A stretch of 64,000 nucleotides of DNA from Acidimicrobiaceae bacterium (GTDB lineage Bacteria > Actinomycetota > Acidimicrobiia > Acidimicrobiales > JAUTXP01), in contig JAUTXP010000053.1 of assembly GCA_030837965.1 (NCBI GenBank), forward strand, positions 16,893 through 80,892. The letters are read 5' to 3'. Positions 10,777 to 27,306 of the stretch are shown one piece after another. A model generated the notes under the pieces. The model did not search any database and was not told where the DNA came from. It was given only the letters and a program-made list of their open reading frames with translations. How positions within the stretch are numbered: position 1 is the stretch's first letter; each line of letters starts with the position of its first letter. A program made the position numbers and the translations under genes.

Positions 10777-10811
10777 ATCTTTTCCACAGCAGCAGGTGCT
10801 GTGGAAAAGAT
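10777..10811. repeat. REP-like palindrome, family A, copy 1 (two inverted TTTTCCACA)
   Basis: ATCTTTTCCACAGCA-gcagg-TGCTGTGGAAAAGAT, a perfect 15-bp inverted repeat. Near-identical copies at 23181 and 27274. Confidence 0.9.
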
Positions 10812-11755
10812 CAGGCCAGGCAGTGGGGGACGGCGCCGTGGAAGGCGATCCTGTCCCCGATGACGGCGGGCACGTCGAGCGGCGTGCCCCAGGGCTCGCC
10901 CCGAAGCTCCGAATAGGCCCGATGCAGATTGGGGGCCAGCCGCTCGGTCTCGCCCCACGACGCGAACTCCCCCAGCCCGCCCTCGTCCCGCAGCCTGACC
11001 GCAGCCTCCAGCGGCGTGCGCCCGGCGGCCAGCCCGTCGGCGGCCACGTCCTGCACCCATCGCAGATAGCGGCCCAGTCGGTCGAACACGTCGGGCTCGC
11101 ACACCGGGCCGTGGCCGGGCACGACGCGCTCGGCGTCCAGCGCGCGCAGCGAGTCGAGCACCTGCAACCAGCCCGCCACGGAACCCTGCATCACCAGCGG
11201 GCAGCCGCCGTTGAAGACCAAATCGCCCGAGATCAGCAGTCGGCGCGACGGCACCCACGCCACCACGTCGTTAGTGGTGTGCGCGGGCACCCCGAAGTGC
11301 AGAAGCTGCACTTCCAGGTCGTCCACCCAGATGGTGAGTCGATCGCTGAAGGTGACGAAGGGCGGCGTGACCTCGATGCGGCCCCACTCCACATCCGGGA
11401 ACAGGGCCGTGCCCAGCAGCCCGGCCGCCACCATCTCGTCCCTGCACCGGTCGTGCCCGACGATGGTGGCCTCGGGCAGCAGCCAGTTGGTGTGCGAGTG
11501 GTCGCCGTGGTGGTGGGTGTTGACCAGCGTGCGCACGGGCCGGTAGCTCACCGATCGAACGGCGTCGAGCAGGGCCCGGCCTCTTCGCTCGGTCGACGTG
11601 CTGTCCACCAGCACCACGCCCTCGCCGCCCACCAGGAAGGCGGAGTTGTTCAGGTACCAGGACCCGTCGGGCTGCACGTGGGCCCAGATCCCAGGGCTGA
11701 CTTCTTCCAGCCGGGGATCGGGGGCGCCCTCAGGCGCCGGCCCCGACCCGCTCAC
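10811..11755 (-). CDS. MBL-fold metallo-hydrolase (cyclase-like)
   Basis: THHHGDHS, HTTND, LISGDLV, VPGHG. Confidence 0.9.
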   Translation of the reverse strand: MSGSGPAPEGAPDPRLEEVSPGIWAHVQPDGSWYLNNSAFLVGGEGVVLVDSTSTERRGRALLDAVRSVSYRPVRTLVNTHHHGDHSHTNWLLPEATIVGHDRCRDEMVAAGLLGTALFPDVEWGRIEVTPPFVTFSDRLTIWVDDLEVQLLHFGVPAHTTNDVVAWVPSRRLLISGDLVFNGGCPLVMQGSVAGWLQVLDSLRALDAERVVPGHGPVCEPDVFDRLGRYLRWVQDVAADGLAAGRTPLEAAVRLRDEGGLGEFASWGETERLAPNLHRAYSELRGEPWGTPLDVPAVIGDRIAFHGAVPHCLA

Positions 11756-14700
11756 TGACCACCTTCGACGACCCGCCCGGCTGCATGGTCACGCCGTACA
11801 GCGCGTCGGCCGCTTCCATCGTGCGCTTCTGGTGGCTCACGATCAGCAACTGGGCGTCGTTGCGGAACTCGTGGATGAGGTCGAGGAAGCGGTGCAGGTT
11901 GACGTCGTCCAGCGCGGCCTCGACCTCGTCCATCATGTAGAAGGGCGAGGGCCGGCTGCGGAAGACGGCGAACAAGAAGGCCAGCGCGGTCAGGGACCGC
12001 TCGCCGCCCGACAGCAGCGACAGCTTGCGCACGTTCTTGCCCGACGGCCTGGCCTCGACCTCGATGCCGGTGTCCAACAGGTTGTCCGGGTCGGTGAGCC
12101 GCAGCCGCCCGGTGCCGCCCGGGAACAGGGTGGCGAAGAGCTTGGAGAAGTTGTCGGACACGTCGGCGAACGCGGCCGCGAAGACCTCCACGATCTCGGC
12201 GTCGATGGCCCTGATCACCTTGGCCAAGTCCCTGCGGCCCGACTTCACGTCCTCCAACTGGCCCTCCAGGAACTGCGAGCGCTCCTGCAAGGCGTTGAAC
12301 TCCTCCAGCGCCAGCGGGTTGATGGGCCCCATGAGCCGCAGCTCGCGCTCCAACTCTCGCACCCGTGACGCGCCGGACGTGCCGTCGGGCAGCGGCGGGC
12401 ACTCGGCGGCACGGGCCGAGTCCGGCTCGCAGTCGAAGTCCCGACGCACCGTCTCCACCGCGGCCTCGAGCCGCATGCGGACCTCGGCCTCGTCGATCTC
12501 GGCCCGTTGGGCCCGCTCTCGAAGCTCGGTCAACTGGCGCTCGGCCGTGGCCCGCTCCCTGCGCAACTGGTCGAGCCGCTCGACTGCGGCCCGCACCTTC
12601 TCGTGGTGCCTGCGCCTGGCCTCGCGCACCTCGGCCAACTCCCGTTCGACCAGGGCCAGGCGCTCGCCCACCGCCGCCTCCAGCCGCGCCGTGGCCACGG
12701 CCACCGCCTCCAGCCTGACCCGGCGCGTCGACGCCACCGCCCGTGCGGCCACGTTGTGCTCCAGGCGCTGTTCGACCTCGGCCAGCCTCCGGGTGAGCAT
12801 GCCCTGGCGCTCCTCCAGGCTGGCGGCCCGCACCTCCAGCTCGCGGCGCAAGGCGCCCACCGCCGCGGCCCGCTCGGTGAGCCTGCCCTGGGCGGCGCGC
12901 ATGGCCATCACCCGCTCGGCCCCAGCCGACTCCTCGGCCTCCAGGCCGGGCAGCAGCCGCTCCAAGTCGGCCACCCGGGCCGCCTCGCGCTCGACCCGCT
13001 CGGCCAACTCGGCCATCTGCGAGCGCAGGGCCTCGTGCTCGATGCCCACGTCCCTGCGCTCGGTCTCCGTGCGCTGCAAGGCGTCGGCCGCGGCCGACAG
13101 TCGCGAGTCGTTGTCGTCCAGTTGCTTGGCCAGTTGCCGCTCGACCCGGCCTGCCTCTTCCACGTCGACGCGCGCCGTGCGGACCCGCTCGCGGGCGTCG
13201 GCCGTGGCCGACTCGGCCGCCGCAGCCTGGGCCCGGGCCTCTTCCAGGGCGGCGCCGGTGGCGCCCGTTCCGGCCGCTCCCGCCCGCCAGCCGCCTGCCG
13301 CGAAGCGGTCGCCCTCGCGGGTGACGGCCACCAGGCCGGGGTGGGCCAGGGCCAAGTCCAAGGCCTGCTCCCAGCCCCCGTCGACCACCACGGCCGAGCC
13401 CAGCAGGGTGTCGAGCAGGCGGTCAACGCTGGGCAGGCGGGACCGCACGTGGGCCCGAACCGGCTCGGCCGCCACTGCCGCGGTGTCGAGGGCCAGGCTG
13501 GCGGGCGGGCCGGCCACGTCGAGGGCGAGCACGGCCCCGTTGGCGCCGCTGTCGCGCAAGTGGCGCAACGCGTTGCGAGCCGTGTCCACCCCGTCGACCA
13601 CGACGGCGGCGATGGCCTCGCCCGCGGCGGCCTCGAAGGCGGCCTCCCAGCCCTCGTCCACCTCCACCAGTTCGAGCAGCGTGCCGACCACGCCCGCGAT
13701 CTCGGCCAGCCGCTCCGCGCCCGCTCGGGCCCGGGCCTCGTCGAGGGCCAGGCTCAAGGCCTCGGCTCGGGCCGACCACGTGTGCCGGGCCTGCTCCGCG
13801 TCCCGAAGCTCGGCCTCGGCCTGTTGCAGGGCGGCGTCGGCCTGAGCCCGGCGGGCCTCGGCCCCGTCCACCTCGGTGGCCAGCGGGCGCTCGGCCTCGT
13901 CGGCGTCCTGGATCTCACCTCGCAGGCGATCGGCCTCGGTGGCCAGTCGGGCCGCCTTCTGCTCCAAGGCGTTGATGCGGGACTGGAGGCGGGCGACCTC
14001 GGTGTGGCCCCGCTCCAGGCCCTGTCGCAGGGCGCCCAGCTCGCCCCTGATCTCGGCCGCCTCGCCGCCGACGGCGGGGACGCCCTCGCCCCACTCGGCG
14101 TCGAACGAGGCCCGGTCGGCGGCCAGCGAGGCCTCGGCCCCGGCCAATTCCTCGGCTTGCGGCACCAGCCCCTCGGCCTCGGTCTCGACCTCTTGCAACT
14201 GGGCGGCCAGGTGGGCGGCGTCGGCCTCCAGCGAGGCGATCACGCCTTCGTCCACCGACGAGGCCAGCTCCCGCTCCGCCCCCCGACGGCGCTCGGCCAG
14301 CAGGGCGGCCATGCCCCTGGCCCGCTCCCGCAGGGACTCGTAACGGACCAAGTCGTCGCTCAACTCGTCGCCGCCCTGGGCGCTGACCGCGGCCTCGGCG
14401 ACGGCCACGTCGGTGTCCAGCCGGGCCAGCGCGGCGCGGATGGCCGACTCGTTCTGGGCCAGGTCCGCCCGTGCCCTGGCCCCTGTCTCCAAGCGGGTCT
14501 GGAGGCTGCTCAGCTCGCGGCCTGCGAGGAAGAGGCGGATGGCCCGAAGCTCCTCGACCAGCGAGCCGTGGCGGCGGGCCGCGTCGGCCTGTCGCTCCAA
14601 GGGGCGGAGCTGGCGGCGGACCTCCCGAAGGAGGTCTTGCAGGCGGAGCAGGTTGCCCTCGGTGGACTCCAGCCTGCGCTGGGCCTTCTCCCTGCGCTTG

Positions 14701-15212
14701 CGGTACTTGAGGACGCCCGCGGCCTCCTCGATGACGAGGCGGCGTTCCTCGGGTCGGGAGTCGAGGATGGCGGCCAGTTGGCCCTGGCTGATGATGACGT
14801 GCTGCTGGCGGCCCACGCCCGTGTCGCTCAGCAGCTCTTGGATGTCGAGCAGACGGCAGGGCACGCCGTTGATGGCGTACTCGCTGTCGCCGCTGCGAAA
14901 CAGCGTGCGGGTGATGGTCAGCTCGCTGAACTCGATGGGGATGAGGCCGGCCGAGTTGTCGATGGTCAGGCTGACCTCGGCCCGGCCCAGGGCCTGGCGC
15001 TTGGCCGTGCCCGCGAAGATGACGTCCTCCATCTTCGTGGAGCGCACCGACTTGGCCGCCTGGGCGCCCAGCACCCACGCCACCGCGTCCACGATGTTCG
15101 ACTTGCCGCTGCCGTTGGGCCCGACGACGACCGTGATGCCGGGCTCGAACTCGAGGTTCGTGGTCTCGGCGAAGGACTTGAAACCCTTGAGGGTCAGGGA
15201 CTTCAGGAACAC
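11730..15212 (-). CDS. smc: Chromosome segregation protein SMC
   Basis: Walker A GPNGSGKSN, long coiled coils with a hinge, LSGGE signature and Walker B DEVEAALD. Confidence 0.97.
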   Translation of the reverse strand: MFLKSLTLKGFKSFAETTNLEFEPGITVVVGPNGSGKSNIVDAVAWVLGAQAAKSVRSTKMEDVIFAGTAKRQALGRAEVSLTIDNSAGLIPIEFSELTITRTLFRSGDSEYAINGVPCRLLDIQELLSDTGVGRQQHVIISQGQLAAILDSRPEERRLVIEEAAGVLKYRKRREKAQRRLESTEGNLLRLQDLLREVRRQLRPLERQADAARRHGSLVEELRAIRLFLAGRELSSLQTRLETGARARADLAQNESAIRAALARLDTDVAVAEAAVSAQGGDELSDDLVRYESLRERARGMAALLAERRRGAERELASSVDEGVIASLEADAAHLAAQLQEVETEAEGLVPQAEELAGAEASLAADRASFDAEWGEGVPAVGGEAAEIRGELGALRQGLERGHTEVARLQSRINALEQKAARLATEADRLRGEIQDADEAERPLATEVDGAEARRAQADAALQQAEAELRDAEQARHTWSARAEALSLALDEARARAGAERLAEIAGVVGTLLELVEVDEGWEAAFEAAAGEAIAAVVVDGVDTARNALRHLRDSGANGAVLALDVAGPPASLALDTAAVAAEPVRAHVRSRLPSVDRLLDTLLGSAVVVDGGWEQALDLALAHPGLVAVTREGDRFAAGGWRAGAAGTGATGAALEEARAQAAAAESATADARERVRTARVDVEEAGRVERQLAKQLDDNDSRLSAAADALQRTETERRDVGIEHEALRSQMAELAERVEREAARVADLERLLPGLEAEESAGAERVMAMRAAQGRLTERAAAVGALRRELEVRAASLEERQGMLTRRLAEVEQRLEHNVAARAVASTRRVRLEAVAVATARLEAAVGERLALVERELAEVREARRRHHEKVRAAVERLDQLRRERATAERQLTELRERAQRAEIDEAEVRMRLEAAVETVRRDFDCEPDSARAAECPPLPDGTSGASRVRELERELRLMGPINPLALEEFNALQERSQFLEGQLEDVKSGRRDLAKVIRAIDAEIVEVFAAAFADVSDNFSKLFATLFPGGTGRLRLTDPDNLLDTGIEVEARPSGKNVRKLSLLSGGERSLTALAFLFAVFRSRPSPFYMMDEVEAALDDVNLHRFLDLIHEFRNDAQLLIVSHQKRTMEAADALYGVTMQPGGSSKVVSERVGAGA

Positions 15213-15294
15213 GCGCGGAGCAGGGTAGCGGGGGTTCGCGAGTGTGGCGCGGAGCCTCGCGAACCCGCTGGTCGGGACCCCGCCCCTACCCCCG

Positions 15295-15346
15295 CACGTC
15301 TGGAGGACATAGCTCGGCGATTCACTTCGCTATGTCCTCCAGTCCG
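15295..15346. repeat. REP-like palindrome, family B, copy 2
   Basis: cacgt-CTGGAGGACATAGC (15300-15313)...GCTATGTCCTCCAG (15329-15342)-tccg. Confidence 0.88.
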
Positions 15347-15354
15347 AGAAAGGA

Positions 15355-16200
15355 TCAGACCTGGCACTGGTTGCAGAGGAACGTCGAGCGGCCTTGCCAC
15401 TTGACCCGGGCGATGGGGCTGCGGCACCGGCGGCAGGCTTGGCCCTCCCGGTCGTAGACGTTGTGGTGGCTCTGGTAGTCCCCCACCTCGCCGAACAGAT
15501 CCCGGTACTGCTCGTCGGCCAGCGACGACCCGCGGTGCTTGATGGCGTCCTGCAGCGTCTCCACCATGGCCCGGTACAGCCTGCGCACCTCTTGCGACGA
15601 CAGCGCGTCCGACGTGCGGTCGAACCGCAGACCCGCGGCCCACAGGATCTCGTCGGCGTACATGTTGCCGATGCCGGCCAGGAACTTCTGGTCCATCAGC
15701 AACGGCTTCAGCCGGGCCCGACGGGCGGCCAGCATCTCGCCGAAGCGCTGCCAGCTCATCACGTCCTCCAGCGGGTCGAAGCCGAGGTGGGCCAACTCGG
15801 GGACGGCGTCGAGCAGGTCGTCGGGCGTGGTGATGAACAGCTCGCCGAAGGTGCGGGGATCGACGTAGCGCAACTCGCCGCCCTGGGTGAAGCGGATGAC
15901 CACATGCGTGTGCTTGGCCGTGGGCTCCTTGGCCGACTTGGCCCGCAGGAGCTGACCGCTCATGCCCAGGTGGACGACGAGGATCTCGCCCGGCGGGGTG
16001 TCGAGGCGCAGCAGGAGGTACTTGCCCTTGCGCTGCACGCCCGCGACCTTGCGGCCCTCCAGCCGGGACACGAAGTCCTTCTTGTTCTTGTGCCTGCGAA
16101 TGGACCGCAGCCCGGTGGCCTCGACCTGCTTGATCTTTTTGCCCACGACCTCCTTTTCGAGGTCGCGCCGGATCGTCTCGACCTCGGGCAGCTCAGGCAT
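15355..16200 (-). CDS. mutM: Formamidopyrimidine-DNA glycosylase
   Basis: N-terminal MPELPEVE, HLGMSG, DPRTFG, H2TH GIGNMYADE and a C-terminal zinc finger CxxC...CxxC. Confidence 0.97.
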   Translation of the reverse strand: MPELPEVETIRRDLEKEVVGKKIKQVEATGLRSIRRHKNKKDFVSRLEGRKVAGVQRKGKYLLLRLDTPPGEILVVHLGMSGQLLRAKSAKEPTAKHTHVVIRFTQGGELRYVDPRTFGELFITTPDDLLDAVPELAHLGFDPLEDVMSWQRFGEMLAARRARLKPLLMDQKFLAGIGNMYADEILWAAGLRFDRTSDALSSQEVRRLYRAMVETLQDAIKHRGSSLADEQYRDLFGEVGDYQSHHNVYDREGQACRRCRSPIARVKWQGRSTFLCNQCQV

Positions 16201-16214
16201 GTCGGGCCGACGCC

Positions 16215-17099
16215 TCAGGCACCGGCTTCGGCCGCGTCCGCCGTCTCGGCGGCATCGGTAGCGGCATCGGCATCGCCGTCGGCATCGCCGTCGGCATCGC
16301 CATCCGGCCCGGCGTCGGCCATGTCCGCGCCATCGGGGACATCCACGACGTCGGCCGCGTCGGCCACCTCAGCCACGTCGGCCGCGTCAGCTACGTCGGC
16401 CAGGGCGGCCAGCTCCTGCCAGGCCAAACGGGCCGCGGCCTGCTCGGCCTGCTTCTTGGACCGGCCCTCCCCCCGGCCCCGCACCAGCCCAGCCACGGTC
16501 ACGGTGGCGAAGAAGCGCTTGGCGTGGTCGGGCCCGTCGTCGAGCACGTCGTAGCGGGGCAGCTCGTCGAACGACCGGGCGGCCAGCTCCTGGAGCCGGG
16601 TCTTGAAGTCCTGCCCGCCCGGCCCGGCCGCGGCCTCGGAGATGCGCTCGCCCAGCAGCCGCATGACGAAGTCGTCGGCCGCCTCCCACCCGCCATCCAG
16701 GTACACCGCGCCGATCACGGCCTCCATGGCGTCGGCCAGGATGGACGGCTTCTCCCGCCCGCCCGACTGGTCCTCCCCCTTGCCCAGCAGCAGCCCCGCG
16801 CCCAGGTCGAGCACGGCGGCCACCTCGGCCAGGGCGGCCGAACTCACCACCGATGCCCGGACCTTGGCCAGCTCGCCCTCGGGCAGGTCGGGATAGGTGT
16901 TGAAGATGTGGTTGGTCACCACCAGTTGGAGCACGGCATCGCCCAAGAACTCGAGCCGCTCGTTGGACGGCTCCCCCGTGGTCTCCGCGCACCAGGACCG
17001 GTGGGCCAGGGCGCGCGGCAGCAGCTCGGGGTCGTCGAACCGCCGTCCGAGGCGCTCGGTGAGCGCAGCGACCGCAGCCGAGTTGTCCGTGTCAGGCAG
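16215..17099 (-). CDS. rnc: Ribonuclease III (start probably a non-canonical CTG; long acidic C-terminal tail)
   Basis: NERLEFLGDAVL signature, ADAMEAVIGAVYLDGG and a dsRBD (DFKTRLQEL...GRSKKQAEQAAA). The ORF-track start (TTG 16946) lies inside the signature; the frame is open upstream to a stop at 17145-17147. Confidence 0.9.
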   Translation of the reverse strand: MPDTDNSAAVAALTERLGRRFDDPELLPRALAHRSWCAETTGEPSNERLEFLGDAVLQLVVTNHIFNTYPDLPEGELAKVRASVVSSAALAEVAAVLDLGAGLLLGKGEDQSGGREKPSILADAMEAVIGAVYLDGGWEAADDFVMRLLGERISEAAAGPGGQDFKTRLQELAARSFDELPRYDVLDDGPDHAKRFFATVTVAGLVRGRGEGRSKKQAEQAAARLAWQELAALADVADAADVAEVADAADVVDVPDGADMADAGPDGDADGDADGDADAATDAAETADAAEAGA

Positions 17100-17394
17100 C
17101 CTCGAGCTTGGCGACGACGTAGTCGACGGCGTCTCGCACCGTCTTCAAGTCCTCGAGATCCTCGTCGTCGATGCGGAAACCGACGGTCCGCTCCCCCAGC
17201 TCCTCCTCCAAGGCCTCGACCAACTCGATGAGGGCCAGCGAGTCGGCGGCCAGGTCGTCGGTGAACGACGCACTTTCGGCAATGGCCCCCGGGTCGATCT
17301 CGAGGATGTCCGACAGGCGGTCGCGAATCAGCTCGAAGACCTGCTCACGGTCCATCGGGCTGCGTTCCACGTGGGTCTCAGCGGGCACGAACAC
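17092..17394 (-). CDS. acpP: Acyl carrier protein
   Basis: DLAADSLALIEL (phosphopantetheine Ser), LKTVRDAVDYV, with an AGGAG ribosome-binding site upstream. Confidence 0.9.
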   Translation of the reverse strand: MFVPAETHVERSPMDREQVFELIRDRLSDILEIDPGAIAESASFTDDLAADSLALIELVEALEEELGERTVGFRIDDEDLEDLKTVRDAVDYVVAKLEAA

Positions 17395-17460
17395 TCCTGA
17401 AAAAGTCTGGCAACCGGCTCGGGATGGTACCGCAGCCTGGCAAGACCCCTCTGCGGGCTG

Positions 17461-18381: not shown

Positions 18382-18391
18382 GGCGGCGATG

Positions 18392-19369: not shown

Positions 19370-19376
19370 CGGGGCG

Positions 19377-19556: not shown

Positions 19557-19569
19557 CGTCGGTCTTCCT

Positions 19570-20144: not shown

Positions 20145-20213
20145 CCAGCCAGTGTAGGAGCGCCCCGCCCCCTTTTCGGACTGTCGGACTGGAGGACAGG
20201 CGGGAAAAGCGCG

Positions 20214-20798
20214 TTATTCGGGCGGGTCCGAGTCCTGGTCGAAGAAGGCGTCGTCGACCGGCTCCTCGGCCAGGCCCGACACGTCGCCTGACGACGGCGC
20301 GGGCAACGGCGTCACCCGCAGCTTCTCCCGCCCGGCCTGGACCGTCTTCGTCGTCCGCTCGAGCACGATCTCGAACGAGGCCAGCTTCTGGTCGCAGTAG
20401 TCCTCGGCCTCGTGGCGCAGCCGCAGGGCCTCGTCCCTGGCCTGCTCGACCGTGCGCTTGGCCGTGTGCTGGGCCTCGCGCACGATCTCGGTCCGCTGCA
20501 CCATGCGCTCGGCCCTGACCCTCGCCTGTTCCAGGATCTCGTCGGCGTCGCGCTGGTTGCGGGCCAGGAACTCCTCGCGCTCCTTGAGCATCCACCGGGC
20601 CTGGCGCAGCTCCTCCGGCAGTCGGTCCAAGGCCTCGCCCAACAGCTCCAAGACCTCTTCTTTGTTGTCGAGCTTGGCCGACGAGGAGAGCGGGATGGAC
20701 CTGGCGTTGTTGATGATCTCGGCCACGCGGCGGATGAGCGTCTCCGCGTCGGGCTGGTCCGAGCCGCCCGAGCCGATGCCCTCGAAGAACGTGGTCAT
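20214..20798 (-). CDS. Coiled-coil DivIVA-like protein (SepIVA/Rv2927c-like)
   Basis: IINNARSIPLSS...LPEELRQARWMLKERE...EAEDYCDQKLASFE, between coaD and yceD as in other actinobacteria. Start MTTFFE at 20798. Confidence 0.75.
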   Translation of the reverse strand: MTTFFEGIGSGGSDQPDAETLIRRVAEIINNARSIPLSSSAKLDNKEEVLELLGEALDRLPEELRQARWMLKEREEFLARNQRDADEILEQARVRAERMVQRTEIVREAQHTAKRTVEQARDEALRLRHEAEDYCDQKLASFEIVLERTTKTVQAGREKLRVTPLPAPSSGDVSGLAEEPVDDAFFDQDSDPPE

Positions 20799-21280
20799 CC
20801 GCGGAACTTCTCCGACAGGCGCTTGGCCACAGGGGGCGGCACCATCGAGCTGACCCGGGCGCCGCCGCCGAAGCGGGCGATGTCGCGCACGAACCGGGAG
20901 GCCACGAACGAATGGGCCGACGCGCAGGGGATGAACAGCGTGTCCATGCCCGAGACTTGATGGTTCATCTGGGCCATCTGCAACTCGTTCTCGAAGTCCG
21001 ACACGGCCCGCAGGCCCTTCACGATCACGTCGGCGCCCACCTCCTTGGCCAGGTCCACCACCAGTGACGACAGGCCCACGACCTTGACGTTGGACAGGTG
21101 GGCCACCGACTCCTCGATCATGGCGCTGCGCTCCTCGAGCGTGAAAAGCGGCTCGCCCTTCTGCGGATTGCGCATGGCCGCGACAATCAGCGAGTCGAAC
21201 AGTCGGGAGGCCGTCTCGATGATCTCGAGGTGTCCGTTGTGGAGCGGGTCGAACGACCCGGGGAACAGCGCGGTCCTCAC
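20795..21280 (-). CDS. coaD: Phosphopantetheine adenylyltransferase
   Basis: ALFPGSFDPLHNGHLEII and VKGLRAVSDFENELQMAQMN. GTG start at 21280. Confidence 0.97.
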   Translation of the reverse strand: MRTALFPGSFDPLHNGHLEIIETASRLFDSLIVAAMRNPQKGEPLFTLEERSAMIEESVAHLSNVKVVGLSSLVVDLAKEVGADVIVKGLRAVSDFENELQMAQMNHQVSGMDTLFIPCASAHSFVASRFVRDIARFGGGARVSSMVPPPVAKRLSEKFRG

Positions 21281-21804
21281 GCGCCACCTTTCTGAGCACT
21301 CGGAGCGACGAGCACGACCACCGTACCGCCGTAGCGCTTCGACCTGAGAACTTCCCAGCCCGGTCCCGGATCGACGGGCCGGTCGGATTCGAGCACGGCA
21401 AGACCGGCGGGGAGCACGGCCAGCAGGTCGGGCCAGGCCTCGAACGAATAGGGCGGGTCGACGATGGCCAGGTCGACGGGCGCCGCCGTCTGGGCCCACC
21501 GCAGCACGTCGTCCCTTCGGACCTGGCCTGCAAAGCCGAGCGCGGTCAGGTTGGCCTTGACCACCGCGACCGCGGCCGTGTCGTGGTCGACGAAGACGGC
21601 CGACGCCGCGCCGCGGGACAACGCCTCGATGCCCATGGCCCCGGAGCCGGCGAAGAGGTCGGCGACCGACGCGCCCTGGACCGCGTCGAGGGAGGCGAGC
21701 ATGTTGAACACCGACTCGCGCACGCGGTCGCTGGTGGGCCGGGTGTGGTTTCCGGGCGGCGCCGTCAGCCGCCGGCCGCGCGCCGATCCCCCCACCACTC
21801 GCAT
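21277..21804 (-). CDS. rsmD: 16S rRNA m2G966 methyltransferase
   Basis: MRVVGG, TRPTSDRVRESVF, DLFAGSGAMGIEALSRGA, DPPY. Confidence 0.96.
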   Translation of the reverse strand: MRVVGGSARGRRLTAPPGNHTRPTSDRVRESVFNMLASLDAVQGASVADLFAGSGAMGIEALSRGAASAVFVDHDTAAVAVVKANLTALGFAGQVRRDDVLRWAQTAAPVDLAIVDPPYSFEAWPDLLAVLPAGLAVLESDRPVDPGPGWEVLRSKRYGGTVVVLVAPSAQKGGA

Positions 21805-21822
21805 GCCGTGCGAGGCTACGGC

Positions 21823-22026
21823 GTGCCCCAACCGCCCGACCGATATGGCCCGGCCGACCCGCTCATCGACTGCATCGACTGCGGTGGGCGCTGCCACCTC
21901 ATGGTGACGTGGGCCGACGACAACCCGCCCGAGCCGGGCGACGTCGTGGTCTATCGCTGCGAGGACTGCAACGACCGCTGGGACATCGTCATCCCAGCCT
22001 CTCCTGACGAAGGCGACGCCACCTGA
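21823..22026 (+). CDS. Small putative zinc-ribbon protein (CxxC...CxxC)
   Basis: GTG at 21823 gives 67 aa: ...LIDCIDCGGRCHL...VYRCEDCNDRWDIV. It is the 3' part of ORF 21583-22026. Confidence 0.6.
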   Translation: MPQPPDRYGPADPLIDCIDCGGRCHLMVTWADDNPPEPGDVVVYRCEDCNDRWDIVIPASPDEGDAT

Positions 22027-22195
22027 GGAACCGCCGGAACACGGCGGCCACGTAGCCCACGCCGGCAACCGCGACCAGGTGGAAGAGCCCGCCCCTTCGC
22101 ACCCCGATGAGCACGGCGGCCACGCCGAGGGCGGCGTCGGTCAACAGGATGCGACGCCAGTTGGCGGCGTAGGCGGCGTCGTCGGGCACGGCCAT
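21989..22195 (-). CDS. Small membrane protein, hypothetical (2 TM helices, basic tail)
   Basis: MAVPDDAAYAANWRRILLTDAALGVAAVLIG...VAAVFRRFLRWRRLRQERLG. Confidence 0.6.
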   Translation of the reverse strand: MAVPDDAAYAANWRRILLTDAALGVAAVLIGVRRGGLFHLVAVAGVGYVAAVFRRFLRWRRLRQERLG

Positions 22196-22240
22196 ACCAT
22201 CGCATCCGTCGCACCATCTCAGCGGACAAGGGGGAGATGC

Positions 22241-23179
22241 ATGCCGCTCGATCCGCAGGCCCAGGTCCTGCTCGACGGTCTGGCCGCGCTGGACTCGCCG
22301 GTGCTGGCCTCGCTGTCGCCGCCCGAAGCGCGTGAGCTGTTCCGAGGCATGGCCGCGCTGACGCCGGTGCCGGAGACGGCGCGCACGGAGGAGCGGGTCA
22401 TCCCGGTCGACGGAGGCGAGTTGACGGCCCACGTGTTCTGGCCGTTGGGCGGCGACGCCTCAGGCGCGCCAGACGCGCCGCCCGTCCTGGTCTATTTCCA
22501 CGGCGGCGGCTGGATCGTGGGCGACCTGTCGACCAGCGACTCCAGCGCGGCCGAGCTGTGCAACCTGTCGGGCTGCGTGGTCGTCAACGTCGACTATCGA
22601 CTGGCTCCCGAGCACGCCTTCCCGGGGCCGTTGGAGGACGCGTACGCGGCCGTGCGATGGGTGGTCGACAACGGCGAGAGCCTGGGCGCGGACCCGACCC
22701 GACTGGCGGTGGGCGGCGACAGCGCGGGCGCCAACCTCAGCACGGCCGTGTGCCTGTTGGCCCGGGATCGGAACGGGCCGGACATCCGCTTCCAACTGCT
22801 GCTGTATCCGCCTGTCGACGGGCGCCGCAGCTATCCGTCGTTTCGCGAGAACGCAGAGGGCTACTTCCTCACGGCCGAGACCATGGACTGGTTCTGGGGC
22901 CACTACTTGGGCGACACCGACCCCGAGGACCCGCTGGCCTCGCCCCTTTACGCGTCGGACCTGGCGGGCCTGCCGCCCGCGCTGGTGGTCACGGCCGAGT
23001 TCGACCCGCTGCGCGACGAGGGCGAGGCCTACGCCGAGCGCCTGCGCCAGGCCGGCGTCATCGCCCACGCCAGTCGATACGACGGCCAGGTCCACGGGTT
23101 CGCGGGCATGTTCAACATCTTCGACGCGGGCCGCAAGGCCATGGACGAGGCGGCCCGAGCCCTGCGCGCCGCCCTCTGA
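22241..23179 (+). CDS. Alpha/beta hydrolase, HSL/family IV esterase
   Basis: HGGGW oxyanion motif, GDSAG nucleophile, EFDPLRDEG, HGF. Purine-rich RBS before MPLDPQ. Confidence 0.94.
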   Translation: MPLDPQAQVLLDGLAALDSPVLASLSPPEARELFRGMAALTPVPETARTEERVIPVDGGELTAHVFWPLGGDASGAPDAPPVLVYFHGGGWIVGDLSTSDSSAAELCNLSGCVVVNVDYRLAPEHAFPGPLEDAYAAVRWVVDNGESLGADPTRLAVGGDSAGANLSTAVCLLARDRNGPDIRFQLLLYPPVDGRRSYPSFRENAEGYFLTAETMDWFWGHYLGDTDPEDPLASPLYASDLAGLPPALVVTAEFDPLRDEGEAYAERLRQAGVIAHASRYDGQVHGFAGMFNIFDAGRKAMDEAARALRAAL

Positions 23180-23180
23180 A

Positions 23181-23215
23181 ATCTTTTCCACAGCACCTGC
23201 TGCTGTGGAAAAGAT
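23181..23215. repeat. REP-like palindrome, family A, copy 2 (opposite orientation)
   Basis: ATCTTTTCCACAGCA-cctgc-TGCTGTGGAAAAGAT between convergent genes. Confidence 0.9.
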
Positions 23216-23223
23216 GAGGGGGG

Positions 23224-25320
23224 TCAGCTCTTGAAGAGGAAGGCGGCCTCGTCGTCGTCCAGCAGGGCCCTGACCTCGTCGGCCAGGACGGGGTTGTCGT
23301 CAAGGAGCGGGTCGGCGTCCACCATGCGAAAGGCGATGGACCTGGCCTGCTCGATGAGGTCCCGGTCCCGCCGCAGCGACGCCAGCTTCAAGTCGCTCAC
23401 GCCCTTCTGCTTGGTGCCCAGCACGGTGCCCTCGCCCCGTATCTCCAAGTCGACCTCGGCCAAGGCGAAGCCGTCCGTCGACCGCTCGACCGCGGCCAGC
23501 CGCTCGCTCTCCGGGTCGCCGCCCAGCAAGTAGCACCACGACTCCGCCGCGCCCCGCCCCACTCGGCCCCGCAACTGGTGGAGCTGGGCGATGCCGAAGC
23601 GGTCGGCGTCCTCGATGACCATGACCGTCGCGTTGGGCACGTCGACCCCGACCTCGATGACGGTGGTGGCGACGAGCACATCCAACTCGGCCCGCCGGAA
23701 GGCGGCCATGGCCGACTCCTTGTCGGCGGGCCTCATCTGTCCGTGCAACAGGCCCAGCCGCAAGTCGGGGAAGACCTCGGCCCGGAGCCGCTCGAACTCG
23801 TCGGTGGCCGACCGGGCCTGCACCCGCTCGGACTCGTCGACCAGAGGGCACACCACATACGCCTGCCTGCCCGCGGCCACCTCCGCCTTGACCCGGGCCC
23901 ACGCCTCCGCCTCCTCCAGCGGCCCGCGGGCCCACACCGTGCGGATGGGCGTGCGCCCCGGCGGCAGCTCGTCCAGCACGGTCACGTCCAGGTCGCCGTA
24001 GACGGTCATGGCCGCGGTGCGGGGGATGGGCGTGGCCGTCATCACCAACACGTCGGGGTCGTTTCCCTTGCCCCGCAAGGCCGCCCGCTGCTCCACGCCG
24101 AAGCGGTGCTGCTCGTCGATGACGACGACGCCGAGGTCCTTGAACGCCACCCCCTCGGTGAGCAGCGCGTGGGTGCCGATGAGGATGTCGACACTGCCGT
24201 CGTCCAAGCCCGCCAGCAGCCGGGTCCGCTCCTTGGCCGTAGTTCGGTTGGTGAGCAGGTCCACGCGCACAGGCCGCTCCTCGAACAGCGAGCCGGTCTC
24301 GTCCGGGACGGTGAGGTCGGCCAGCAGCGACCGGACGCCGAGGAAGTGCTGCTCGGCCAACACCTCGGTCGGCGCCATCAGCGCGCCTTGGTGCCCGCCT
24401 TGCACTGACACCAGCAGCGCGCTCACGGCCACGACCGTCTTGCCCGCGCCCACGTCCCCTTGCAGCAGCCGGTGCATGGGATGCACGCCCGCCAGGTCCG
24501 ACTCGATCTGGTCGATCGCCCGCCGCTGCGCGCCCGTGAGCGGGAAGGGCAGACGCTGCCGGAAGCGCTGGGCCAACTCGCCGTCCACGTTGTGCTGGAT
24601 GCCCTTGGCCTCACGCTCGACGGCCCGCTTGCGCATCACGAGCGCCACTTGCAGTCGGAACAGCTCGTCGAAGGCCAGCCGCTTGCGCGCCGCGCCGACC
24701 GCGCCCATCGAGTCTGGCTGGTGGATCTGGCGGAAGGCCCACGTTCGGTCGACCACATCGAGCTCGTCGCGCACGGGCTGGGGCAGCGGGTCGGCGAAGT
24801 CGCCCGCGCGCTGCAACGCCTCCTCCACCCAGCGGCCGATCTCCCACGTCGACAGGTCGGCCGACTGCGGGTAGATGGGCACGATCTTGCCCGTCTTGTT
24901 GCCGATCAGGTCGACCAGCGGGTTGGCCATCTGGCGCTTGCCCCGGAAGGTCGTGACCTTGCCGAAGAAGGCCGCGTTGGCCCCTTCGGAGAGCTGCTTG
25001 GCCCGCCACGACTGGTTGAAGAACGTGCAGCGAAGGAACCCCGACTCGTCGGACACGTCGACCTCGACAAGGATCTTGTGGTTGCGGGCCCGACGTGTGG
25101 CGACCCGCTTGATCTCGGCCAGCACCAGGCCGTCGTCGCCCTCGCGCAGGTCGGCGATGCGGGCCTCCCTGGACCGGTCGACGTGGCGGCGCGGGTAGTG
25201 CGTGAGCAGGTCGAGAACGGTCAGGACGTCGATGGCGGCCAGGTCCGCCGCGCTCTTGGCGCCGACGCCGTTCAGGACCGACACGGGCAGGTCGGCCAGT
25301 TGGCTGAGGCGGCGGGCCAC
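23224..25320 (-). CDS. recG: ATP-dependent DNA helicase RecG
   Basis: OB wedge domain, LQGDVGAGKT, DEQHRFGV, MTATPIPRT, QLHQLRGRVGRG. Confidence 0.97.
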   Translation of the reverse strand: MARRLSQLADLPVSVLNGVGAKSAADLAAIDVLTVLDLLTHYPRRHVDRSREARIADLREGDDGLVLAEIKRVATRRARNHKILVEVDVSDESGFLRCTFFNQSWRAKQLSEGANAAFFGKVTTFRGKRQMANPLVDLIGNKTGKIVPIYPQSADLSTWEIGRWVEEALQRAGDFADPLPQPVRDELDVVDRTWAFRQIHQPDSMGAVGAARKRLAFDELFRLQVALVMRKRAVEREAKGIQHNVDGELAQRFRQRLPFPLTGAQRRAIDQIESDLAGVHPMHRLLQGDVGAGKTVVAVSALLVSVQGGHQGALMAPTEVLAEQHFLGVRSLLADLTVPDETGSLFEERPVRVDLLTNRTTAKERTRLLAGLDDGSVDILIGTHALLTEGVAFKDLGVVVIDEQHRFGVEQRAALRGKGNDPDVLVMTATPIPRTAAMTVYGDLDVTVLDELPPGRTPIRTVWARGPLEEAEAWARVKAEVAAGRQAYVVCPLVDESERVQARSATDEFERLRAEVFPDLRLGLLHGQMRPADKESAMAAFRRAELDVLVATTVIEVGVDVPNATVMVIEDADRFGIAQLHQLRGRVGRGAAESWCYLLGGDPESERLAAVERSTDGFALAEVDLEIRGEGTVLGTKQKGVSDLKLASLRRDRDLIEQARSIAFRMVDADPLLDDNPVLADEVRALLDDDEAAFLFKS

Positions 25321-25329
25321 CTGCTCGAT

Positions 25330-27009
25330 CTACTCGATCGAGAACAGGTACGGGTACAGGGGCTGGCCGCCGTGATGGACCTCGCTGCCCACCTCGGGTC
25401 TGTGCTCTCCCAGCCACTCGGTGATGCGCCGGGTGTCGGCCGGGCTGGCCCCTGCGCCCTCGATGATGGTGACCAGCTCGTGGTCGTCGGTGACGAGCTT
25501 GGCCAGCAGTCCGGTGGCGGCCTCGGCCAAGGTCGGCGCCACCGTCTCGATGCGCTTGCTGGACAGGCCCAGCCAGTCGCCTTCATGGATGGGGCCGGCC
25601 TCGGCGGACGAGTCGCGCACCGCCCTCGTCACCTCGCCGCTCACCACCCGGTCCGCGGCCTGGGCCATGGCCTCGGCGTTGTCGTCGGCGGTGGCGTACG
25701 GGTCGTATTCGAGGAGGGCGGCGAAGCCTTGGGCGATGCCGGTGGTCTTGACGACGCGCACGGTCTTGTCGGTGAGGGGGGCGACCTGCTCGGCCACCGG
25801 GATGATGTTCTTGTTGTTGGGCAGGACGACCACTTCTTGGGCGGGCGCCCTCTCGACTGCTTCGAGGATCTGTGCGGTGGAAGGGTTCATGGACTGGCCG
25901 CCCGCCACGATCTGATGCACGCCCAGCGATCGGAAGATGCGCCGGATGCCCTCGCCGGTGGCCACGGCCACGACGGCGGTGGGGACGGGCTCGGCATCGG
26001 CGTCGGGGTCGTCGCCATCCGGTGGCGCTGTGTCCGCCGCCTCCCTGACCCAGCGCTCCTCCTCGACCTGCTCCATGAGGTCGGTGACCCGGATGTTGCG
26101 GGGGCGGCCGCAGTCCAGCGCGGCCTCGACGGCGGCGCCGATGTCATCGGTGTGGATGTGGCAGTTCCATATGCCGTCGCCGCCAACCACGACGATCGAG
26201 TCGCCGATGCCCGCCCACACGTCCTTGAAGGCGGGGATGGTCTGGTCGGGCGCTTCGAGGAAGTACATGACCTCGTAGCGCAAGTCCGACACGGCGTCGT
26301 GGGCGGCGTCGATCTCGGGGGTGTGCGCCGGCGCCGCCCCGCTCGTGCCCGAGGACGGAAGGGCTTGCGGCGTGTCCGTCGGCTCGGGCAGGGGGCGGTC
26401 CGCGACGATGTGCAAGAGCGCGTCGAGCAGCAGGAGGAAGCCGGCGCCGCCCGCGTCGACCACGCCCGCCTGCTTGAGGACGGGCAACAGGTCCGGCGTC
26501 TCGGCCAGGGCGATGCCGCCCGCGGTACGGGCCGCGTCGAGCACGTCGACCAGAGCCTTGTCCTGGTCGGCCGCCTCGCGTGCCCCCGCGGCCGAGGCCT
26601 TGACGACCGTGAGGATGGTGCCCTCGACGGGACGCATCACCGCTTGATAGGCGGCCGCGCTGGCCCCGTCGAGCGCTTCGGCCAGCTCCTTGGGGCCAGC
26701 CGCGTCCACGCCCTTGCAGCCGTCGGCGATGCCTCGCAGGACTTGGCTCAAGATCACGCCCGAGTTGCCCCGGGCGCCCATGAGGGAGCCGTGGCTGATG
26801 GCCTTGCAGGTGGAGACCATGTCCTCGGCCCCGTCCAGGGCGGCCATGACCGACTCGAGGGTGAGGGCCATGTTGGTGCCCGTGTCGCCGTCGGGCACGG
26901 GGTAGACGTTGAGGCGGTTGACGGACTCCTGGTGCGAGCGGAGGAGGTCGCGGTAGGCGGCGACCGTGGCGCGGAGGTCGGCCGCGTCCAACCGCTCGAG
27001 GAGTGTCAT
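25330..27009 (-). CDS. DAK2-domain fatty acid kinase subunit A-like protein
   Basis: LNVYPVPDGDTGTNM, GARGNSGVILSQ, EGTILTV, VVDAGG, GGQSMNPST. Adjacent to rpmB and recG. Confidence 0.93.
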   Translation of the reverse strand: MTLLERLDAADLRATVAAYRDLLRSHQESVNRLNVYPVPDGDTGTNMALTLESVMAALDGAEDMVSTCKAISHGSLMGARGNSGVILSQVLRGIADGCKGVDAAGPKELAEALDGASAAAYQAVMRPVEGTILTVVKASAAGAREAADQDKALVDVLDAARTAGGIALAETPDLLPVLKQAGVVDAGGAGFLLLLDALLHIVADRPLPEPTDTPQALPSSGTSGAAPAHTPEIDAAHDAVSDLRYEVMYFLEAPDQTIPAFKDVWAGIGDSIVVVGGDGIWNCHIHTDDIGAAVEAALDCGRPRNIRVTDLMEQVEEERWVREAADTAPPDGDDPDADAEPVPTAVVAVATGEGIRRIFRSLGVHQIVAGGQSMNPSTAQILEAVERAPAQEVVVLPNNKNIIPVAEQVAPLTDKTVRVVKTTGIAQGFAALLEYDPYATADDNAEAMAQAADRVVSGEVTRAVRDSSAEAGPIHEGDWLGLSSKRIETVAPTLAEAATGLLAKLVTDDHELVTIIEGAGASPADTRRITEWLGEHRPEVGSEVHHGGQPLYPYLFSIE

Positions 27010-27066
27010 ACGGGCGACGATGCTAACCTTCTCCGGTTCCCCTTCCGACCTTGAGGAGTGCGCGTC

Positions 27067-27261
27067 ATGGCAGCGGTGTGCGAGGTGTGCGGCAAGCATC
27101 CCTCATTCGGCATGAGCATCAGCCACTCGCATCGGCGCACCAAGCGGCGGTGGAATCCGAACATCCAGCGGATCAGGGCCATCGTGAACGGCGCCCCCAA
27201 GCGCCTGCACGTGTGCACGTCGTGCATCCGCGCGGGCAAGGTCCAGAAGGCCTCCCACTAG
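27067..27261 (+). CDS. rpmB: 50S ribosomal protein L28 (Zn-binding form)
   Basis: [34 protein letters not shown]...[11 protein letters not shown], with GAGGAG RBS. Confidence 0.97.
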
Positions 27262-27273
27262 CAGGCCCCTCCG

Positions 27274-27306
27274 ACTTTTCCACAGCAGCAGGTGCTGTGG
27301 AAAAGT
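27274..27306. repeat. REP-like palindrome, family A, copy 3
   Basis: ACTTTTCCACAGCA-gcagg-TGCTGTGGAAAAGT. The outer pair differs from copies 1-2 but stays complementary. Confidence 0.9.

Follow-up and report, generated by a model that had tools for sequence, protein, structure and literature searches.

A dispersed hairpin-forming palindrome of an Acidimicrobiaceae genome, probably a repeat of the REP/TRIT/RPE kind

A family of short hairpin repeats at gene ends

Three near-identical palindromes in an Acidimicrobiaceae genome probably belong to a small, non-autonomous dispersed repeat that folds into a hairpin and falls into one class with REP sequences, mycobacterial TRITs and Rickettsia palindromic elements (RPEs). 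The repeat is a previously undescribed member of this known class of REP/TRIT/RPE-like hairpin repeats. A sequence-only reading of the same DNA had proposed a REP-like element, possibly accompanied by a RAYT transposase and acting as a DnaA sink, recruiter or mimic. The first part stands: the element is dispersed, hairpin-forming and lineage-specific, has 170-179 copies concentrated at gene 3' ends, and spreads by insertion. The RAYT partner and a DnaA-related role as the reason for the element are not supported.

The window, that is the whole stretch of DNA analyzed, comprises 64,000 nt (Acidimicrobiaceae bacterium, assembly GCA_030837965.1, contig JAUTXP010000053.1, positions 16,893-80,892, forward strand). 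The carrier genome holding it (G000; 3.55 Mb, 70% GC, 97.9% complete) is considered here together with its two sister genera (G001 and G002) and a distant genome (G061). The palindromes at 10777, 23181 and 27274 are all exact, occur in both orientations and all adjoin stop codons, as had been noted from the letters. Copy 1 (10777-10811) reads ATCTTTTCCACAGCA-GCAGG-TGCTGTGGAAAAGAT and is a perfect palindrome around a 31-nt core, C-TTTTCCACAGCA-GCAGG-TGCTGTGGAAAA-G (10779..10809; like the other cores not assigned to a strand), with a C-rich left flank, CCCCCCTCAT, and a predicted RNA hairpin of -22.9 kcal/mol. The stop codon (TCA on the plus strand, 10811-10813) of a minus-strand gene for a metallo-beta-lactamase-fold (MBL-fold) protein (10811..11677) shares the last base of the palindrome, and the start of ftsY (9564-10733, minus strand) is found 44 nt beyond it. 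Copy 2 (palindrome 23181-23215, 31-nt core 23183..23213) has the arms of copy 1 with the loop CCTGC and is therefore its reverse complement; the flank common to both copies, CCCCCCTCAT in copy 1 and ATGAGGGGGG to the right of copy 2, is likewise present as reverse complements. It lies between convergent stops, 1 nt past the TGA of an esterase gene (23177-23179) and 8 nt short of the TCA of recG (23224-23226). Copy 3 (palindrome 27274-27306, 31-nt core 27275..27305) reads ACTTTTCCACAGCA-GCAGG-TGCTGTGGAAAAGT and is also located between convergent stops, 12 nt past the TAG of rpmB/L28 (27259-27261) and 7 nt short of the TCA of a 71-aa ORF (27314-27316). The 12-mer TTTTCCACAGCA occurs six times in the window compared with 0.04 expected, a number reached in 0 of 100 shuffles. 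Rfam 15 searched at gathering threshold returned 0 matches in the 64-kb window.

Genome-wide, the family comprises about 175 copies in G000 (170-179 depending on the pattern used), with 341 exact 12-nt arms. The unit is a 31-nt core, CTTTTCCACAGCA-[G/A]CAGG-TGCTGTGGAAAAG, 98-100% invariant overall and consisting of a 13-bp stem and an asymmetric 5-nt loop, bordered by short, degenerate, C-rich and G-rich flanks. Conservation is 94-100% at every core position including the loop, with the exception of the first loop base (G/A, 82/18%), and three discrete loop subfamilies can be distinguished (GCAGG, ACAGG and GGGGG). The stem is AT-richer than the genome and the predicted RNA hairpin has a free energy of -20 to -23 kcal/mol in either orientation. 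Rare decayed copies have kept CCACA and lost the T-run. Six of nine arm positions agree with the MtrA motif GTCACAGCG as well (motif from PMC4285127). Within a set of 151 relatives the family is confined to two genera of uncultured Acidimicrobiia, with 170 copies in G000 and 55 copies of a variant in G002; it is absent from G001 and 149 other relatives and from 300 further genomes of the class.

Insertion at stop codons and in tolerant coding positions

New copies arise by the insertion of about 39-45 nt, as seen from filled and empty orthologous sites. The site of copy 2 is empty in G002 and holds an unrelated palindrome in G001, while that of copy 3 is empty in G002 and holds a different hairpin in G001. 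Both copies are present in sister populations (97.5% identical, a value given for copy 2). Eight sites compared with 97-98%-identical populations yielded no clean presence/absence polymorphism and hence define neither a target-site duplication nor the exact end of the element; at the 75-80% identity of the sister genera no target-site duplication is resolvable.

Surviving copies are mostly found just 3' of stop codons and above all between convergent genes. The gene context is convergent for 61, tandem for 81 and divergent for 10 copies, representing a roughly 3-fold enrichment at convergent pairs, with a median of 15 nt separating a copy from the gene 3' end. The loop has no preferred orientation relative to transcription (same in 34 copies, opposite in 47) or to GC skew. 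The stop codon TGA falls within the linker in 16 copies, and about 13 ORFs read through the core and end 2-25 codons further on. About 17-23 copies are located within ORFs, several of them deep inside genes; some occupy tolerant protein linkers and C-terminal tails. A Mur-ligase-like gene carries a clean 39-nt in-frame insertion that is absent from both sister genera, and more in-frame copies are present in a nadB-like gene and in interdomain linkers. The translation of in-gene copies in G000 is nearly always FSTA(AG/PA)AVEK. The frame tally is 17:2:0 in a caller-independent count and 22 of 23 with our own gene calls. This single-frame bias was not replicated in G002 (4:3:1, n = 8).

Copies are homogenized within each genome

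Copies are uniform within one genome, and orthologous copies in the sister genus carry the version of that genome. Eleven of 31 evaluable G002 sites are occupied in G000 as well, compared with about 1.6 expected by chance, and at these shared sites each genome has its own variant, even where both copies occupy one gene in an identical codon register. Six cores compared with 97-98%-identical sister populations show 0 differences in 186 nt, with 23 in 1202 nt of flanking sequence, while the core at C51:25495 shows four differences from a near-identical sister population with none in 240 nt of flanks. The genome-specific versions at shared sites and the four-difference core between identical flanks point to copy-and-convert (concerted) evolution; alternatively, this core, in which the direction of change is not polarized, could have mutated locally or come under selection in the sister population. 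Homogenization may proceed by repeated short-tract gene conversion or by re-copying off a master sequence, and may be set off when the hairpin or a cruciform breaks.

A RAYT or IS200-type transposase flanked by the repeat had been suggested as something to look for. A six-frame search with PF01797 for RAYT/Y1 transposases gave 0 matches in all four genomes tested (G000, G001, G002 and G061), with positive controls in 6 of 14 genomes. Genes of the Pfam family DEDD_Tnp_IS110 are absent from G000, G001 and G002, although MAG assemblies may drop multicopy IS elements. With Y1_Tnp and DEDD_Tnp_IS110 both missing from these three genomes, the copy mechanism is one that we infer, and a dedicated enzyme, if there is one, would be neither a RAYT nor an IS110 recombinase encoded in these assemblies. 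As a speculative proposal that we ourselves consider unlikely, uniformity and spread might stem from a previously undescribed, RAYT-independent process of hairpin-directed copy-and-convert in Acidimicrobiia, in which a host or cryptic enzyme would read the TTTCCACAG stem of the folded DNA and, using a master copy, rewrite existing sites or start new ones, with some 345 DnaA-box look-alikes potentially titrating DnaA as a side effect. Such a process would account for genome-specific versions at orthologous sites, for the burst-like change of 4 nt in one core, for copies translated within proteins, and for a copy having been captured at the tip of an IS110 bridge-RNA stem-loop and carried from there into a distant lineage. 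The inner stems of G000 and G002 differ symmetrically, which fits a hairpin and equally fits a duplex site of a symmetric dimer.

An IS110-family element carries the palindrome in a distant genome

In G061 (57% RecG identity), the palindrome occurs only in the 5' RNA region of an IS110-family element. All six G061 copies lie within this one element, about 80 nt from its left end, with a core that differs at one of 29 positions and is located at the apex of a long stem-loop. IS110 elements encode a bridge RNA in the region that matches the place of the G061 palindrome (PMC11208160). Rfam searches around the IS-borne copy gave chance-level matches only. An IS110 relative, 55% identical, has a different, shorter apical hairpin at that place, suggesting that the palindrome is a secondary acquisition by the G061 element. 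The IS110-borne copy makes the family appear mobile across hosts.

Alternative explanations

The sequence-only reading held that DnaA binds the two inverted TTTTCCACA boxes of each copy and that about 345 such boxes titrate or position the initiator, a function that would maintain the family. Each arm does contain TTTTCCACA, matching TTWTNCACA at 9/9 positions and the actinobacterial box TTGTCCACA (box table in PMC4285127) at 8/9; 345 of the 349 TTTTCCACA sites of the genome lie in the repeat, compared with only seven TTGTCCACA sites genome-wide, three of them within 10 kb of dnaA. The DnaA of G000 retains the canonical DNA-contact motif GGRDHTTVIHA, and TTTCCACAG is the part that the repeat has in common with the sister-genus variant. 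We nevertheless regard this function as highly improbable. The window was correctly described as lacking oriC, with dnaA-dnaN found on another contig, and the boxes in the dnaA-dnaN spacer are TTGTCCACA/TTGTCCACC, while TTWTNCACA is found 0 times on the entire oriC contig; such a difference in oriC box consensus had been named beforehand as refuting the DnaA reading. Positions of the box are no better conserved than the rest of the stem or the asymmetric loop, so that conservation extends over the entire hairpin. In the G002 variant the box is GTTTCCACA, with G in place of its first T, and the T-run is the first part to go in decayed copies. Genera differ by gains and losses of copies, with none in the equally related G001, and their positions at gene 3' ends and in frame reflect insertion tolerance rather than replication logic. 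Mapping relative to oriC cuts both ways: the 155-kb oriC contig has 0 copies compared with 7.7 expected (P = 4e-4), but it is short of other hairpins too (3 compared with 7.9 expected, none from a repeat family), so that the depletion extends beyond the box. Loose matches to a motif are also easily obtained, as the MtrA motif illustrates. Since the replication origin of this genome has boxes of another type, the agreement of each arm with the E. coli-type DnaA box at 9/9 positions is in all likelihood an incidental by-product, although DnaA, given its canonical motif, could well bind TTTTCCACA in duplex DNA incidentally. An origin in IS110 bridge recombination, with the palindrome as native bridge-RNA hairpin or preferred target and the dispersed copies as IS footprints, would explain why all six G061 copies are found at the apex of a stem-loop in the bridge-RNA region of one element. 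It is extremely improbable given the other apical hairpin of the 55%-identical relative, the missing DEDD_Tnp_IS110 genes, and the target of the G061 element, which is a different repeat, CCGCGAAAATCGGCCCCC..., and not the palindrome. IS110 elements excise precisely and are not known to leave a footprint, which likewise counts against it.

A TRIT-like 3'-end element, in which the hairpin is selected as a bidirectional terminator or mRNA-stabilizing stem-loop, perhaps with a dsRNA-binding factor, and dispersal represents terminator acquisition, is a possible though doubtful explanation. The short distance to stop codons, the convergent enrichment, the stable RNA hairpin predicted in either orientation and the orientation independence suit a bidirectional element, M. 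tuberculosis TRIT offers a close parallel with 147 copies (PMC3152330), and unrelated hairpins of G001 occupy the same two slots as copies 2 and 3. The element has no U-tract, however, with mostly one or two T within 8 nt past the core, and does not conform to a canonical intrinsic (Rho-independent) terminator. The 17-23 copies in ORFs, several of them deep, also argue against it, as does a copy between rpmI and rplT, within the conserved infC-rpmI-rplT cluster, in which efficient termination would do harm. Of the 31 G002 sites, 20 are empty in G000 and most of these are also without another strong hairpin there, indicating that the slots need no filling. Duplex sites for a symmetric dimeric DNA-binding protein, either nucleoid-associated or a regulator recognizing TTTCCACAG-N9-CTGTGGAAA, would explain why the outer half-sites and their 9-nt spacing are kept in G000, G002 and the IS-borne G061 copy while the center differs, and the symmetric changes in the center are compatible with dimer recognition. 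The 9-nt center and the asymmetric loop are, however, invariant per genome and fall into discrete subfamilies, which indicates copying and not site selection. The 3'-end and coding locations are not regulator territory, the sites are dispensable between genera and no candidate protein is known, making such sites quite improbable. For the dispersed hairpin repeat that we favor, any cellular role, for example as a 3'-end RNA hairpin shielding transcripts or attenuating read-through, would be secondary.

Implications

A mobile repeat may match a well-known binding-site consensus perfectly without this being evidence of function, a caution that follows from the use of another box at the organism's origin and from the whole hairpin being the conserved unit. 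The family provides a natural case for asking how REP/TRIT-like hairpins copy without RAYT and how hundreds of 31-nt copies stay identical over the long term while a sister genus carries another version. Hairpins of this kind can enter essential-type enzymes in frame as well as the guide-RNA region of an IS110 element. Annotators of MAG proteins may encounter a spurious FSTAAGAVEK insert, and the palindrome in the IS110 RNA region is relevant to those mining for bridge RNAs. If DnaA bound the sites, the three sister genera would represent a natural titration series, from about 345 boxes through about 110 degenerate boxes to none.

Comparison with known systems

Like datA of E. coli and the DBCs of B. 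subtilis, the family provides DnaA-box matches outside oriC in numbers that could affect the free DnaA pool. datA and the DBCs occupy a few fixed, conserved positions, and their boxes are of the high-affinity type native to the organism, whereas the boxes here are non-native (T for G at position 3), are carried on a mobile hairpin and turn over between genera without box-specific constraint or conservation in relatives. MITEs and terminator-like repeats (Correia/NEMIS, SPRITE, RUP and BOX; PMC10969869) likewise lack autonomy, are structured, lie between genes and may influence where transcripts end; MITE-type elements can also insert into each other or into IS elements (PMC10969869). Terminal inverted repeats around a longer body, a target-site duplication and a cognate transposase were not detected for the present element, the whole element being one hairpin of 31-45 nt, far below typical MITE length, with no related IS in G000 or G002.

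REP/REPIN sequences, which are mobilized by RAYT (Bertels and Rainey, 2011; PMC3116915), are extragenic palindromes of 20-40 nt in hundreds of copies and share with our family the 3' intergenic location, the enrichment between convergent genes, vertical persistence and sequence populations within genomes. Consistent with REP, the repeat is a short palindrome whose numerous extragenic copies favor 3' ends and convergent gene pairs. In contrast to REP, RAYT/Y1 is missing from every carrier and copies are also tolerated in coding sequence; neither a REP-type GTAG/CGTC tag nor REPIN doublets were found in the consensus or the copies, which are single hairpins.

TRIT of M. tuberculosis comprises 147 palindromic copies overlapping stop codons, for which a dsRNA-binding factor has been proposed (Gardner et al., 2011; PMC3152330). 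Both families are found in Actinomycetota, restricted to a narrow taxon, with about 150 conserved palindromic hairpins per genome that occur in either direction and are tightly associated with stop codons, often overlapping the end of the coding sequence, and for neither is a mobilizing enzyme known. The sequences are unrelated, and the repeat described here has a stem that is AT-richer than the genome, several in-frame copies deep in genes and genome-specific variants at orthologous sites, of which we know no demonstration for TRIT. As a high-copy, conserved palindromic hairpin at or over stop codons, our repeat resembles TRIT; any termination activity of our repeat would be putative.

RPEs (PMC10969869) are about 100-150 bp long and found in reduced, intracellular Alphaproteobacteria, whereas our insertions are about 39 nt (13 aa) and mostly intergenic. 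Both are selfish palindromes that insert in frame into unrelated coding genes, and in both the translated insert is a conserved peptide that seems compatible with the function of the protein.

Family A is a multicopy hairpin repeat with a conserved 31-nt core

The window corresponds to C41:16893-80892 of an 88-contig assembly (3.55 Mb, 70% GC) of an uncultured member of the Acidimicrobiia with the gene order dnaA-dnaN-recF-gyrB-gyrA (G000). Gene contexts in this genome were assigned using our own crude gene calls plus Pfam. The three palindromes claimed by the sequence-only reading at 10777, 23181 and 27274 were confirmed at exactly these coordinates. Copy 1 (10777-10811) separates the stop codon of an MBL-fold gene from the ftsY start. 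The other two occupy convergent gaps, copy 2 (23181-23215) where an esterase gene and recG end and copy 3 (27274-27306) where rpmB (L28) and a 71-aa ORF end. Six occurrences of the 12-mer arm TTTTCCACAGCA are found in the window compared with 0.04 expected. Copy 2 represents the reverse complement of copy 1, flanks included (CCCCCCTCAT and ATGAGGGGGG), and the orientation of each copy is set by its 5-nt loop, GCAGG or CCTGC. The genome-wide count proposed in the same reading yields 170-179 palindromes in G000, depending on the pattern used, and 341 exact 12-nt arms.

Alignment of 177 G000 copies oriented by loop defines a 31-nt core, C-TTTTCCACAGCA-[G/A]CAGG-TGCTGTGGAAAA-G, with all positions 94-100% conserved except for the first loop base (G/A, 82/18%). 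Conservation also covers the asymmetric loop and the three stem positions that the DnaA-box match leaves out. Three discrete loop subfamilies are found, namely GCAGG (82%), ACAGG and GGGGG. The flanks are degenerate yet symmetric: the left one has a C/pyrimidine-rich run and a 3-nt linker (CAT, CGA, CAA, GCG, GAT or GAA), and the right one mirrors it. Pairing between the two flanks of one copy is no stronger than between those of different copies (5.31 and 5.60 pairs of 12, respectively), indicating that the selected stem ends at the 31-nt core and that linker classes on either side combine independently; a long hairpin, or insertion at the apex of a pre-existing hairpin, was therefore rejected. 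The predicted RNA hairpin has a stability of -20 to -23 kcal/mol in both orientations (-13.7 kcal/mol as DNA), and no U-tract was found after it. An Rfam search returned no matching family and searches of viral contigs and PLSDB plasmids gave zero matches, so that a phage, plasmid or known RNA family was rejected as the source.

Other hairpin families are present as well. A second one, whose loops vary and whose arms read TGGAGGACATAGCC / GGCTATGTCCTCCA, is found at 15300-15342, 41760-41800, 45764-45856 and 54173-54217 of the window and has ca. 20 perfect-arm copies genome-wide, with AGGACAT[AG]GC-type arms. The long palindrome …TTTGCGCATTTGGGCGCAGTTCTG… at window 32193-32269, also found at G000 C5:57576-57895, resembles another multicopy G000 hairpin (ATTTGGGCGTAGTTGTGGTCCC…GGGCCACAACTACGCCCAAAT), while hairpins at window 33036-33081 and 41129-41170 have the common arm GTCTTGTCGCGC / GCGCGACAAGAC and possibly represent a further small family. 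An abundant family with the arm GCACCTTTTCT (CTTCTGGGCACCTTTTCTTCG…), located for example at C12:1753-1995, has 27 perfect-arm copies in G000 and, as in family A, a stem that is AT-richer than the genome. Family-A density is over-dispersed among G000 contigs (chi-square P = 0.008), and in this draft assembly C68 (155 kb, carrying dnaA), C61, C59 and C13 carry almost no dispersed hairpins of any family.

Family A is concentrated at gene 3' ends and also resides in frame within proteins

Convergent gaps hold 61 family-A copies, tandem gaps 81 and divergent gaps only 10. Convergent gaps make up 14% of all intergenic gaps, yet carry 40% of intergenic copies. The median distance is 15 nt to a gene 3' end compared with 55 nt to a 5' end, and in 16 copies the TGA of the upstream gene falls within the linker (TGA[A/T]CTTTTCC). 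Loop orientation shows no relation to transcription direction (34 same, 47 opposite), GC skew or gene-strand majority. The strand or replication-direction bias predicted if IS200/IS605-type ssDNA transposition were at work is consequently absent by all three measures. One copy (G000 C51:18672-18698) lies between rpmI (L35) and rplT (L20) within the conserved infC-rpmI-rplT cluster, which argues against an efficient terminator; it is kept in three sister-population contigs. Several G000 contigs start less than 60 nt from a copy (C14:2, C17:35, C29:29 and C65:36), indicating that the repeat causes assembly breaks in G000 and sister MAGs, and sister contig JAUTXK010000033.1 ends just past copy 3.

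According to the G000 gene calls, ca. 23 copies lie inside ORFs, and comparison with orthologous genes shows that several of these are genuine gene insertions. The Mur-ligase-like gene at G000 C5:42083 contains 39 extra nt, and its protein reads ...AASL-LDFSTAAGAVEKMEG-VTYG..., compared with GG or GGGA at this position in both sister genera. Further in-gene copies occupy a nadB-like linker and the interdomain linker of a response-regulator-type protein. The core is open in all three frames, but coding-like ORFs entering it use a single frame, yielding FSTA(AG/PA)AVEK, in 22 of 23 cases based on our own gene calls; a tally independent of the gene caller gives 17:2:0 in G000. As the stops preceding family A fall in all three frames (65/47/74) and the alternative frames encode LFHSSRCCGK or SFPQQQVLWKR, we infer that the bias in G000 results from selection on the encoded peptide. 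No frame bias was seen in the sister genus G002 (4:3:1, n = 8).

A sister genus carries its own variant at shared sites

Among 151 relatives from ca. 112 families of the order, the pattern TCCACAG-N9-CTGTGGA is found only in G000 (170 copies) and G002 (55 copies), the latter representing a different genus of the same family, and 300 further genomes sampled across the class contain none. RecG and FakA are 80-85% identical among G000, G002 and a third genome, G001, giving a near-star tree in which the grouping of G000 with G002 is weakly supported. G001, about equally related, contains zero family-A copies. The G002 variant reads CCCCTTCACCTCGCG-T-TTCCACAGG[G/C]AC[A/T]GT[G/C]CCTGTGGAA-A-CGCGAGGTGAAGGGG. 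The outer TTTCCACAG / CTGTGGAAA and their 9-nt spacing are common to both versions, which differ symmetrically in the inner stem and centre.

The G002 sites orthologous to copies 2 and 3 are short empty spacers. The corresponding G001 slots (G001:C277 ~1768-1970 and G001:C129 ~8000-8300) instead hold unrelated hairpins, for example TTCTCGTAACGCT…AGCGTTACGAGAA, indicating that the same convergent gaps are filled by different hairpins across genera. In the reverse comparison, G000 regions syntenic to the flanks were found for 31 G002 copies, and 11 of these sites are also occupied in G000 compared with ca. 1.6 expected (5% slot occupancy; Poisson P ~1e-6). All 11 shared sites carry the genome-specific variant in each genome, indicating that family-A copies do not diverge independently. 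At one of them, the linker, the nadB-like gene and the codon register all match. The remaining 20 sites are without a G000 copy and usually without a strong hairpin of another kind. A requirement for a hairpin at every 3' slot was rejected, as G000 sites without a G002 copy mostly lack another strong hairpin.

Besides the shared sites, closely related populations also point to concerted evolution of the copies. Two sister populations at 97.5% identity have both copy 2 and copy 3, and the cores are identical. Across six cores compared with 97-98%-identical populations, no differences were found in 186 nt compared with ca. 3.6 expected (P ~0.03), whereas the 100-nt flanks differ at 23 of 1202 nt. 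At C51:25495, 4 of 31 core positions differ from the sister population while the 240 nt of flank show no differences, and the chance of all four differences falling in the core is ca. 2e-4. G000 has the perfect consensus and the sister version three broken base pairs. A single short-tract conversion or re-copying event, its direction not polarised, would be a simpler explanation than four separate point mutations. The sister population may alternatively have undergone local selection, in line with the position of the hairpin ca. 20 nt upstream of the start of the next gene. No filled/empty polymorphism was observed at 8 sites (ca. 42 kb) in 97-98%-identical populations, where all G000 copies are present and no extras are found.

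Distant copies reside in an IS110-family element

The RAYT/IS200-type transposase suggested as a partner by the sequence-only reading is absent, as no Y1/RAYT gene (PF01797) was found in G000, G001, G002 or the distant genome G061. Similarly, no IS110-family gene was found in G000, G001 or G002. Both searches are to be read in light of the tendency of MAGs to lose multicopy IS elements. With neither gene in the carrier genomes, RAYT and IS110 were rejected as family-A mobilisers. A scan of public collections identified family A in at least one other genome, G061 (OZ251535.1), a complete MAG labelled Candidatus Spongiisociaceae with 57% RecG identity to G000. All six G061 palindromes are inside one IS110-family element, which itself has six copies in this genome (Pfam DEDD_Tnp_IS110 + Transposase_20; loci including OZ251535.1 2576001-2584000), and each palindrome has a single mismatch to the G000 core in 29 positions. 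They are located ca. 80 nt from the left end of the element and ca. 85 nt upstream of the ATG, capping a long, very stable stem-loop (z = -7) at its apex. The bridge RNA of IS110 elements is encoded in a region matching this position (PMC11208160). The element inserts into a different repeated target than the palindrome. In an IS110 relative with 55% identity, the corresponding position bears another apical hairpin, which is shorter. A metagenome scan for relatives returned one truncated locus. We read the element not as the origin of family A but as one whose RNA stem-loop apex a family-A copy would have entered before being carried horizontally. The insertion sites have a common repeated motif (…CCGCGAAAATCGGCCCCCRCCGCCGGCAAACCCGGGCCC), indicating that G061 has its own REP-like target family, and two inverted IS110 copies flank an ISL3-family transposase gene in this genome.

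DnaA binding probably does not explain the conservation of family A

The proposal that family A acts as a DnaA sink, recruiter or mimic is mostly answered negatively. An incidental interaction of DnaA with the duplex palindrome is plausible from motif content: the 9/9 match of the arm to TTWTNCACA holds, 345 of 349 genomic TTTTCCACA sites fall within family A and the host DnaA keeps the canonical contact motif GGRDHTTVIHA. In addition, the 155-kb dnaA contig, which has 23 convergent and 83 tandem slots, contains no copies compared with 7.7 expected (P = 4e-4). This depletion is real but not specific to family A. Other hairpins are also scarce on the oriC contig (3 compared with 7.9 expected, none belonging to a repeat family), indicating a general effect that lends DnaA binding no support and that plausibly reflects purifying selection in a core-gene region, or else a regional effect in a draft assembly.

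Several observations argue against DnaA function being under selection. The dnaA-dnaN spacer contains TTGTCCACA and TTGTCCACC beside an AT-rich stretch, a box type that differs from the TTTTCCACA of the repeat and represents the high-affinity box in Mycobacterium and Streptomyces (PMC4285127). Three of the seven genomic TTGTCCACA sites lie less than 10 kb from dnaA, whose 155-kb contig carries no TTWTNCACA. Box positions, which the sequence-only reading proposed to test for higher conservation, are conserved only as well as the remaining core. The sister-genus variant is GTTTCCACA, the few decayed copies retain CCACA with the T-run lost, the equally related G001 is devoid of family A, and copy positions track insertion tolerance. 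How easily partial matches to known motifs arise is illustrated by the family-A arm, which also agrees with the MtrA motif GTCACAGCG at 6 of 9 positions.

Comparison with known systems

The description of family A as REP-like is borne out, and overall it works like a REP/TRIT-type hairpin repeat with RPE-like in-frame residence in proteins. The lack of a RAYT, tag or doublets places it outside the REP-RAYT system. The missing U-tract sets it apart from canonical intrinsic terminators, and it is not a demonstrable MITE, as no TIR/TSD or parent IS was found. The nearest described analogue is the TRIT hairpin of M. tuberculosis, present in 147 palindromic copies that overlap stop codons (PMC3152330).
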